Source of the DNA: Verrucomicrobiota bacterium
GTDB taxonomy: Bacteria; Verrucomicrobiota; Verrucomicrobiia; Limisphaerales; UBA1100
DNA: 37,533 nt
Assembly (NCBI GenBank): GCA_028872685.1
Contig: JAPKEI010000001.1
Coordinates: 1-37,533 of the forward strand
Direction of reading: 5' to 3'
Shown one piece after another: positions 24,746-25,267 of this stretch. The notes under the pieces are model-generated. The model was given only the letters and a program-made list of their open reading frames with translations. It was not told the DNA's origin and did no database searches. Every line of letters starts with the position of its first letter. Positions within the stretch are counted from its first letter, which is position 1. The position numbers and the translations under genes were made by a program.

Positions 24746-25267
24746 ATGCACGAAAACTGGCGACAACAATTTCAGGAACTATTTTCCACCGGCGTGAAAC
24801 GCTACGAAGCGGGACGGCACAGTCCCGAATCGATGTTCGAAACAGAGGACACTATCTTTCTCGAATCCATCGGTTGCAGCGCGTTGGAGATGTTTGATTT
24901 TTGTGATGACTACGTGCGATGGGGCGATGTAATTTACGAGCATGTGGAGGAACTGCAAGCCGTGCGCCTCGATCATTTTCAGAATACGCTAAATGGCAAA
25001 CCCGCCGAGCACCGTATGGACATCGATGAATTCCCCGAAAAATCAGCTGAAGTGGAAGGTATCGCCTGGCTCCCGCGCCTCATCACCAAGGCCCGCGCGA
25101 AGCTCGCCGGGAGTTTACCAGCCGACCTCATGTACGGCTGAGGCGGCGACCGCCAGTTCTTCCGTGAGAAGAACGTCAATCCAGCCAAACTCCTAAGTGT
25201 CACCCTTGCTGCCGGCAAGAACGATCAGCAAGTCATCGATTACGTAAAAAGTTGCGCTGATATTTAA
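24746..25267 (+). CDS. DUF5069-like protein interrupted by an in-frame TGA at 25139-25141 (candidate selenocysteine codon, otherwise a pseudogene)
   Basis: The track ORF stops at TGA after ...[26 protein letters not shown]. The same frame continues for 41 codons ([41 protein letters not shown]) to TAA at 25265-25267. Together the two parts reproduce the DUF5069 core as I recall it (LPR..K.....G.L...Y.gCG.g.D......G.d...f...............(W/Y)(I/V)), with TGA at the Cys position. The ATG at 24746 is preferred over the TTG at 24740. Confidence 0.55.
25156..25174 (+). promoter_or_regulatory. SECIS-like stem-loop downstream of the in-frame UGA
   Basis: GUUCUUC (25156-25162) pairs perfectly with GAAGAAC (25168-25174). 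The 5-nt loop CGUGA contains GU and starts 21 nt after the UGA. A second 5-bp hairpin, GGCGG-CGA-CCGCC (25142-25154), begins right after the UGA. Pairing was checked by hand only. Confidence 0.3.

Follow-up and report, generated by a model that had tools for sequence, protein, structure and literature searches.

An in-frame UGA in the cysteine column of a DUF5069-like protein points to an uncatalogued selenoprotein family of marine Verrucomicrobia

Does a UGA codon that is annotated as the end of a 131-codon gene in a verrucomicrobial genome terminate translation, or does it specify selenocysteine (Sec) within a longer protein? The question is raised by a 37,533-nt stretch of DNA, here called the window, from a Verrucomicrobiota bacterium (Limisphaerales; UBA1100; assembly GCA_028872685.1, contig JAPKEI010000001.1, positions 1-37,533, forward strand). 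In it the reading frame of a DUF5069-like gene (24746-25267, + strand) meets an in-frame UGA at 25139-25141, continues open beyond it, and is followed there by a hairpin resembling a bacterial selenocysteine insertion sequence (SECIS). Public records carry the gene as a 131-amino-acid (aa) 'hypothetical protein', truncated at the UGA; an initial annotation of the window, made from its letters alone, had put it forward as a candidate selenoprotein gene. Comparison of homologous loci leads us to the view that the UGA is very probably decoded as selenocysteine, and that the selenoprotein family so defined is previously uncatalogued.

The UGA codon and the reading frame beyond it

The ATG start of the gene lies at 24746, 2 nt beyond the TGA stop of the preceding gene, and the open reading frame (ORF) of 131 codons that begins there ends ...LPADLMYG before TGA 25139-25141. 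Past this codon the frame stays open for 41 codons (25142-25264, + strand) until TAA 25265-25267, each position being as first annotated. The predicted selenoprotein gene thus comprises 131 codons, the UGA, 41 codons and the TAA, and its 173-aa read-through product would join an N-terminal helical part to a DUF5069-like C-terminal half, with the proposed Sec in the motif LMYG-U-GGDR. No in-frame ATG, GTG or TTG occurs within the 41-codon extension, which therefore cannot be translated independently. The stop of a convergent ferredoxin-like gene (124 aa) shares 2 nt with its TAA, so the extension exactly occupies what would otherwise be an intergenic gap, and the same 123-nt 'gap' before the convergent gene is seen in three long contigs (L161-L163).

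The extension forms the rest of a domain. Against the Pfam profile DUF5069 (PF16798, gathering cut-off 27 bits) the truncated product scores 22.1 bits and the read-through product 42.3 bits (E = 1.1e-10), with residues 101-169 matching profile positions 9-75 of 133 only. The initial proposal that the downstream piece is the missing half of the domain is hence supported by a score that passes the cut-off only with read-through. A protein search over 5.8 billion sequences returned 625 relatives; among the best 120 the majority (65-96% identity) have a length of exactly 131 aa, and therefore stop at the same place, and a minority are 174-176 aa long and carry PF16798. Full-length homologues read ...DLMYG-C-GGDRPFLRE..., with Cys in the UGA column, and these Cys homologues measure 174 aa. 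In a profile search over 1.84 billion representatives, after which the relatives were aligned to the profile, the family amounts to 271 representatives at 50% identity, almost entirely from Verrucomicrobiota assemblies. Of the 98 representatives with a residue at the column, 93 have Cys (motif LMYG-C-GGDR-x-F), in agreement with the expectation that the UGA stands in place of a family Cys.

A 176-aa entry, P0002, shows Trp at this column, and its underlying codon is TGA. This DNA is untranslatable with table 11, and the Trp is therefore a gene-caller artefact. Calls of this type (L164, 968-1498; L165, 546-1076; from ENA/Tara and Logan) render the Sec UGA as Trp in products of 176 aa, and an alternative-code Trp at a putative active-site column could mislead family alignments.

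The codon itself was read in homologous loci from a scan of species-representative genomes (L001-L080) and from a metagenome scan (L081-L160), nearly all of them from Verrucomicrobiota; the count (n=160) includes the window, among the TGA loci, and leaves out L062, which the search motif did not match. TGA stands at the column in 46 loci (34 distinct sequences), TGC in 96, TGT in 17 and an ambiguous TGN in one, so that wherever the codon is neither TGA nor ambiguous (113 loci) it is TGC or TGT. The TGA loci share about 58-98% protein identity with the window and derive from independent metagenome-assembled genomes (MAGs), a single-cell genome (L002), metagenome contigs and polished long-read contigs; the polished long contigs with TGA, L161-L163, measure 3.5, 2.07 and 0.84 Mb. 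Recurrence of the TGA across independent assemblies, a single-cell genome and polished long contigs, in a clade whose proteins diverge by as much as about 40%, excludes a read or assembly error.

Two peculiarities of the sampled loci deserve mention. Five contigs (L035, L049, L050, L068 and L076) are titled Acetobacteraceae, Bifidobacterium, Klebsiella, Kapaibacterium or Akkermansia muciniphila despite their Verrucomicrobia-type gene, and are likely mis-binned or mislabelled. Two loci of a single MAG (L008 and L015, both CAZTTU01, MAG SRP260945_co1_472) hold different copies of the Sec form, at 71% and 67% identity to the window; these are paralogues, or else the bin is mixed.

In all TGA loci the frame continues for about 40 codons, up to the point at which the Cys forms terminate. 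The ratio of nonsynonymous to synonymous differences (pN/pS, pairwise Nei-Gojobori) is 0.261 in the 60 codons upstream of the TGA and 0.261 in the 37 codons downstream, and this equality indicates that the extension is under the same protein-coding selection as the annotated part of the gene. A plain stop followed by decayed sequence, which the initial annotation had named as an outcome that would speak against recoding, was seen in none of the 46 TGA loci. In a neighbour-joining tree the 43 distinct Sec proteins group together to the exclusion of all Cys forms, and their sister group is a marine clade of 18 Cys proteins. The single clade indicates one conversion from Cys to Sec followed by retention, and no reversion to Cys was found among the 43 proteins.

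A SECIS-type hairpin that accompanies the UGA

A candidate bacterial SECIS-type hairpin (25156-25174, + strand) begins 14 nt downstream of the UGA. Its perfect 7-bp stem pairs GUUCUUC (25156-25162) with GAAGAAC (25168-25174) around the loop CGUGA (25163-25167), at a UGA-to-loop distance of 21 nt. Stem, loop and spacing were found as first described, and folding of 25130-25200 recovers the hairpin together with a smaller one at -23.4 kcal/mol (z = -2.37; 2 of 200 shuffles were equally stable). RNAalifold independently predicts the same 25156-25174 helix and leaves the smaller first hairpin out.

This first hairpin, a small GC-rich structure (GGCGG-CGA-CCGCC, 25142-25154, + strand) directly after the UGA, is present where it had been reported. 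It is not conserved among orthologues: of 34 sequences, 7 lack one of its five pairs and 9 lack another, and the minor point made of it in the initial annotation is not supported. Being unconserved and outside the RNAalifold consensus, it was rejected as a part of the SECIS element; it is probably incidental, a by-product of the GGN-GGN-GAY-CGN codons.

The 25156-25174 stem, by comparison, is kept across the 34 distinct TGA sequences, with 99.2% of the cells of the alignment paired. At the fourth pair 31 sequences have C-G and 3 have U-A, a variant that arose independently in two lineages (the L003/L004/L088/L096 group; L016), and at the closing pair 30 have G-C, 2 have G-U and 2 are unpaired. 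The loop varies between CGUGA, CGUGC and CGGGC, with invariant Gs at loop positions 2 and 4; in L016 the change of a loop codon alters the protein from Glu to Ala and the stem is retained. Constraint extends to silent positions. Third-position entropy is 0 at codons +5, +7, +8 and +9 after the UGA and 0.54 at codons +6 and +10, where the compensatory swap lies, whereas most of the codons around have values of about 1-1.8, and synonymous divergence (pS) is 0.32 in the hairpin codons versus 0.66-0.77 elsewhere.

The structure follows the codon. The 34 Sec forms average 6.94 of the 7 pairs in register; the 17 members of the sister Cys clade average 3.47 and the 89 other Cys forms 4.20, with full 7/7 pairing in none of the Cys forms of either group. 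The comparison proposed at the outset, of a hairpin beside UGA and none beside UGC or UGU in orthologues, has therefore come out in favour of recoding, with the hairpin strictly accompanying TGA.

The published bacterial SECIS (bSECIS) model specifies a loop of 3-9 nt, an upper stem of 4-16 bp, a G in the first two loop positions (usually G[G|U]), a distance of 16-37 nt from UGA to loop and a minimum free energy of at most -7.5 kcal/mol (PMC13188914). The hairpin agrees with it in the lengths of loop (5 nt) and stem (7 bp), in the G at the second loop position, with U or G after it, and in spacing (21 nt). Its energy is borderline and depends on how much flanking sequence is counted: the UGA plus 45 nt of the window folds at -16.1 kcal/mol, and the RNAalifold consensus lies at -7.58. 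No Rfam family matches at the hairpin site, the only Rfam matches in the window being the signal recognition particle (SRP) RNA and a tRNA.

Likeness to established bSECIS genes, such as E. coli fdhF and those of the roughly 119 families in PMC13188914, extends to the in-frame UGA, the intragenic stem-loop directly downstream, the loop G followed by U or G, the UGA-to-loop distance within 16-37 nt, the existence of Cys homologues and the descent of a Sec clade from a Cys ancestor. The present hairpin differs from theirs in being short and AU-rich.

Probable selenocysteine insertion and the competing explanations

On the reading we prefer, the 25156-25174 hairpin would act as a bacterial SECIS element when the ribosome reaches the UGA, recruiting SelB-GTP-Sec-tRNA(Sec) so that selenocysteine would be inserted instead of termination taking place. 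Translation would then resume for 41 codons and end at TAA 25265, and Sec would take the place of the near-invariant Cys in LMYG-C-GGDR-F, in a Gly-rich loop before a helix. The proposed recoding mechanism is the standard bacterial one, known in kind; it is the family that is not catalogued.

Several points weigh against this assignment. The hairpin alone has a calculated energy of -6.2 kcal/mol, and its U-A variant -3.5, both above the -7.5 of the model unless flanks are counted. Covariation is confined to one stem pair, five of the seven pairs being invariant, and the stem encodes the conserved peptide FFREK, so that the nucleotide conservation could partly reflect selection on the protein. 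Genes for the Sec machinery were not encountered: ARAGORN gave only tRNA-Met, and no tRNA-Sec, in the window and the fetched loci, no sel gene is among the 30 window ORFs annotated with Pfam (26 with a match), and a scan of the fetched loci (1.5 Mb in all, with about 10 kb of flank each) for SelA, SelB and SelD motifs found none. A screen for a second selenoprotein gene nearby, in which all TGA-read-through ORFs of the window and of L001-L015 were compared by Sec/Cys BLAST with all loci, likewise yielded none. The DUF5069-like gene alone emerged from it (17 TGA, about 60 Cys); the other candidates were rejected, each being an off-frame translation of a real gene. The window and the 1.5 Mb of loci make up a tiny fraction of each genome, and the absence of selA, selB, selD and tRNA-Sec from them does not count against the Sec claim; it does leave a small probability for read-through by another route.

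Such a route would be independent of SelB, with the hairpin stimulating near-cognate decoding of the UGA as Trp, Cys or Arg, or with the 131-aa form as the main product, extended only now and then, and no selenium involved. The missing machinery would fit it, as would a hairpin that is short, AU-rich and of low stability. We nevertheless regard it as improbable, since a column that is otherwise invariant Cys is the classic Sec/Cys signature and the position, loop size and loop G[U/G] of the hairpin fit the SelB-type bSECIS model; moreover, maintenance of the UGA clade-wide without reversion argues that it provides something that Cys codons do not. Still less can be said for a split gene, in which the 131-aa product would be complete and the downstream 123 nt would encode a small peptide, an RNA element or a terminator. 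The N-terminal 131-aa part is itself well conserved, as this explanation would have it, but the extension, which lacks an in-frame start codon, is under codon-type selection, its synonymous divergence being high outside the hairpin. It corresponds by homology to the C-terminal helices of the Cys forms, the DUF5069 match requires it, and a structural model of the family places these helices within one compact domain. We consider it very improbable.

The remaining explanations have a negligible probability. A pseudogene, a recent nonsense mutation or a sequencing error at 25139-25141 would be the default reading of an in-frame stop, and is the one implied by the public 131-aa 'hypothetical protein'. 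The initial annotation had kept nonsense mutation and base-calling error as its alternative; both are excluded by the presence of TGA in 46 loci, polished contigs included, with a pN/pS of 0.26 on both sides and with frame and C-terminus preserved. A change of genetic code in the lineage, with TGA read as Trp or Gly, might seem to be favoured by the 176-aa P0002 with its Trp at the column, but that Trp was placed by a gene caller over TGA, and the homologues have Cys there, not Trp or Gly. As noted from the outset, TGA is an ordinary stop in this DNA, closing 9 of the 26 Pfam-supported genes of the window at their expected ends, including the gene immediately upstream. Decoding of UGA 25139-25141 as selenocysteine therefore stands as by far the most probable reading.

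Structure, neighbourhood and the place of the family

An AlphaFold2 model of the Cys homologue P0063, built from a 40-sequence alignment, is one compact all-alpha domain of high confidence (predicted local distance difference test, pLDDT, 96.8; predicted template modelling score, pTM, 0.91), in which the Cys/Sec position lies in a Gly-rich loop (residues 122-134) that precedes helix 135-141. Foldseek gave a single match above noise, the PDB entry 3omd (probability 1.00, 82 columns, root-mean-square deviation 2.4 Å, TM 0.40/0.48). This match is partial, confined to the C-terminal half, and the Cys of 3omd (...YNC...) aligns with the Sec column. As regards function, a PDB sequence search and Foldseek together led only to 3omd, a Leptospirillum rubarum protein of unknown function. 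The C-terminal half of the present protein resembles DUF5069 and 3omd in profile and fold, whereas the subfamily differs from them in adding its own N-terminal helical part of about 100 residues and in covering only half of the profile's 133 positions. No function is known for DUF5069, nor has a Sec member been reported.

Further bacterial selenoprotein families continue to be described regularly. The present one was compared with an inventory from May 2026 (PMC13188914), which lists 119 families and subfamilies of prokaryotic selenoproteins, and neither PF16798/DUF5069 nor a YGUGGD motif is among the 119 families of its Table 1. In NCBIfam (June 2026), which holds hidden Markov models (HMMs) for most curated selenoprotein families, no HMM matches the protein at E <= 0.01, the model NF049953 included, and the new-family files of the supplement to the Global Ocean Sampling (GOS) marine selenoproteome contain no matching sequence. 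The term 'DUF5069' does not occur in the full-text literature searched, about 8 million papers. Inventory, literature and NCBIfam comparisons thus agree with the initial remark that DUF5069 is not a listed selenoprotein family. There is a resemblance to 'Hypothetical protein DG' (NF049953, GUxG; a deep-Sep prediction in Desulfosediminicola), which shares the G-U-x-G pattern (here YG-U-G-G-D) and an uncharacterised function, but belongs to a different family and different taxa, the likeness being limited to the short motif. Identity with this protein or with GOS_A, GOS_B or GOS_C was considered and rejected, as GOS_A is unrelated and no sequence or NCBIfam match was obtained. Catalogued selenoproteins are commonly thioredoxin-like; the all-alpha fold and the lack of a CxxU or UxxC motif set the present protein apart from that common case.

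The selenoprotein gene is the last of a putative operon on the + strand, which consists of a short-chain dehydrogenase/reductase (SDR, 19867-20673), a LarA-like nickel-pincer putative hexonate epimerase (20675-21967), a PhyH-type dioxygenase (21943-22833), a Gfo/Idh/MocA oxidoreductase (22830-23915) and a xylose-isomerase-like TIM-barrel protein of the sugar epimerase/isomerase family (PF01261, 23919-24743), the TGA stop of which lies 2 nt before the selenoprotein ATG. This order is kept in the Sec clade. The TIM-barrel gene, the best NCBIfam matches of which are IolO and psicose 3-epimerase (both below cut-off), immediately precedes the gene of this family in every Sec locus and in the sister marine Cys clade, and does so again in L066; at 82-100% protein identity it is more conserved than the selenoprotein. 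Elsewhere in the family the domain is fused to Gfo/Idh/MocA (P0131), to a NuoF-like FMN/Fe-S module, to DUF934 and to a 6-phosphogluconolactonase-like domain. Apparent fusions in long ORFs among the distant Cys homologues were dismissed, as these contain no extra Pfam domain.

Some features of the surrounding genes are recorded here in their own right. For the LarA-like gene the best NCBIfam match is NF052594, 'nickel-dependent putative hexonate epimerase' (E = 2.4e-57, below cut-off), and the operon from 19867 to 24743 may represent an uncharacterised sugar-acid or inositol pathway using a nickel-pincer cofactor. The convergent 124-aa gene (25264-25638, - strand) is Cys-rich and has no Pfam match, its NCBIfam similarities (NF041612/NF041613) being to 2Fe-2S (thioredoxin-like) ferredoxins below cut-off; it adjoins the selenoprotein gene in most Sec-clade loci and could be a redox partner. 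Beyond it lies a gene for a 504-aa protein (25635-27149, - strand) with about 50 N-terminal residues of Gly-rich repeats, a Tim44-like domain and double zinc ribbons at the C-terminus; a TPM-domain gene (27149-27802) comes next, and this pair is kept downstream in several Sec-clade loci. The small SRP RNA (9243-9339, - strand; RF00169, 75.8 bits) and the tRNA-Met (37275-37348, - strand) are both ordinary. At 33266-37184 (+ strand) two large genes of Planctomycetes/Verrucomicrobia type follow one another, the first with PSD/PSCyt domains (DUF1592, DUF1588, DUF1587, DUF1585, DUF1595) and the second with DUF1552 (HXXSHH), a pairing typical of the Planctomycetes-Verrucomicrobia-Chlamydiae (PVC) superphylum and in agreement with the taxonomic placement.

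The partners suggest, tentatively, a role for the Cys or Sec as a redox-active or nucleophilic centre in NAD(P)-linked metabolism of sugars or sugar acids, TIM-barrel and Gfo/Idh/MocA proteins being the companions in question. The residue may likewise, with similarly low confidence, sit in an anion-binding Gly-rich loop beside the conserved R111, K115, D135 and R136. A bolder proposal, that the protein founds a selenoenzyme class with a new, non-thioredoxin all-alpha fold and a catalytic YG-U/C-GGDR, coupled to marine sugar, sugar-acid or inositol catabolism, we regard as rather unlikely, if conceivable. This functional picture draws on gene neighbourhood and fusions only, and it is tempered by the variable surroundings of the distant Cys homologues, which include a methyltransferase, CPSase, an S15 peptidase, Mqo and, once, a TIM barrel.

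Few computational signs of a catalytic redox or nucleophilic residue are as strong as a Sec/Cys pair, and the Cys of LMYG-C-GGDR is therefore a first functional handle on DUF5069-like proteins; with its all-alpha fold and without CxxU or UxxC, the protein is therefore not the thioredoxin-like case common among catalogued selenoproteins. The family adds to the prokaryotic selenoproteome beyond the 119-family inventory and the curated NCBI models. Gene callers systematically truncate it to 131 aa or misread its UGA as Trp in hundreds of marine metagenome entries. Its very short, sequence-conserved hairpin could help to train predictors of bacterial SECIS elements. A diversified marine clade of Verrucomicrobia (Pedosphaera/Limisphaerales-like MAGs) is indicated as a user of selenocysteine, and the family is abundant in ocean metagenomes. 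Should a catalytic Sec indeed operate in a sugar pathway, selenium would be tied in these bacteria to the turnover of polysaccharide-derived ocean carbon, and not to generic thiol-redox housekeeping.

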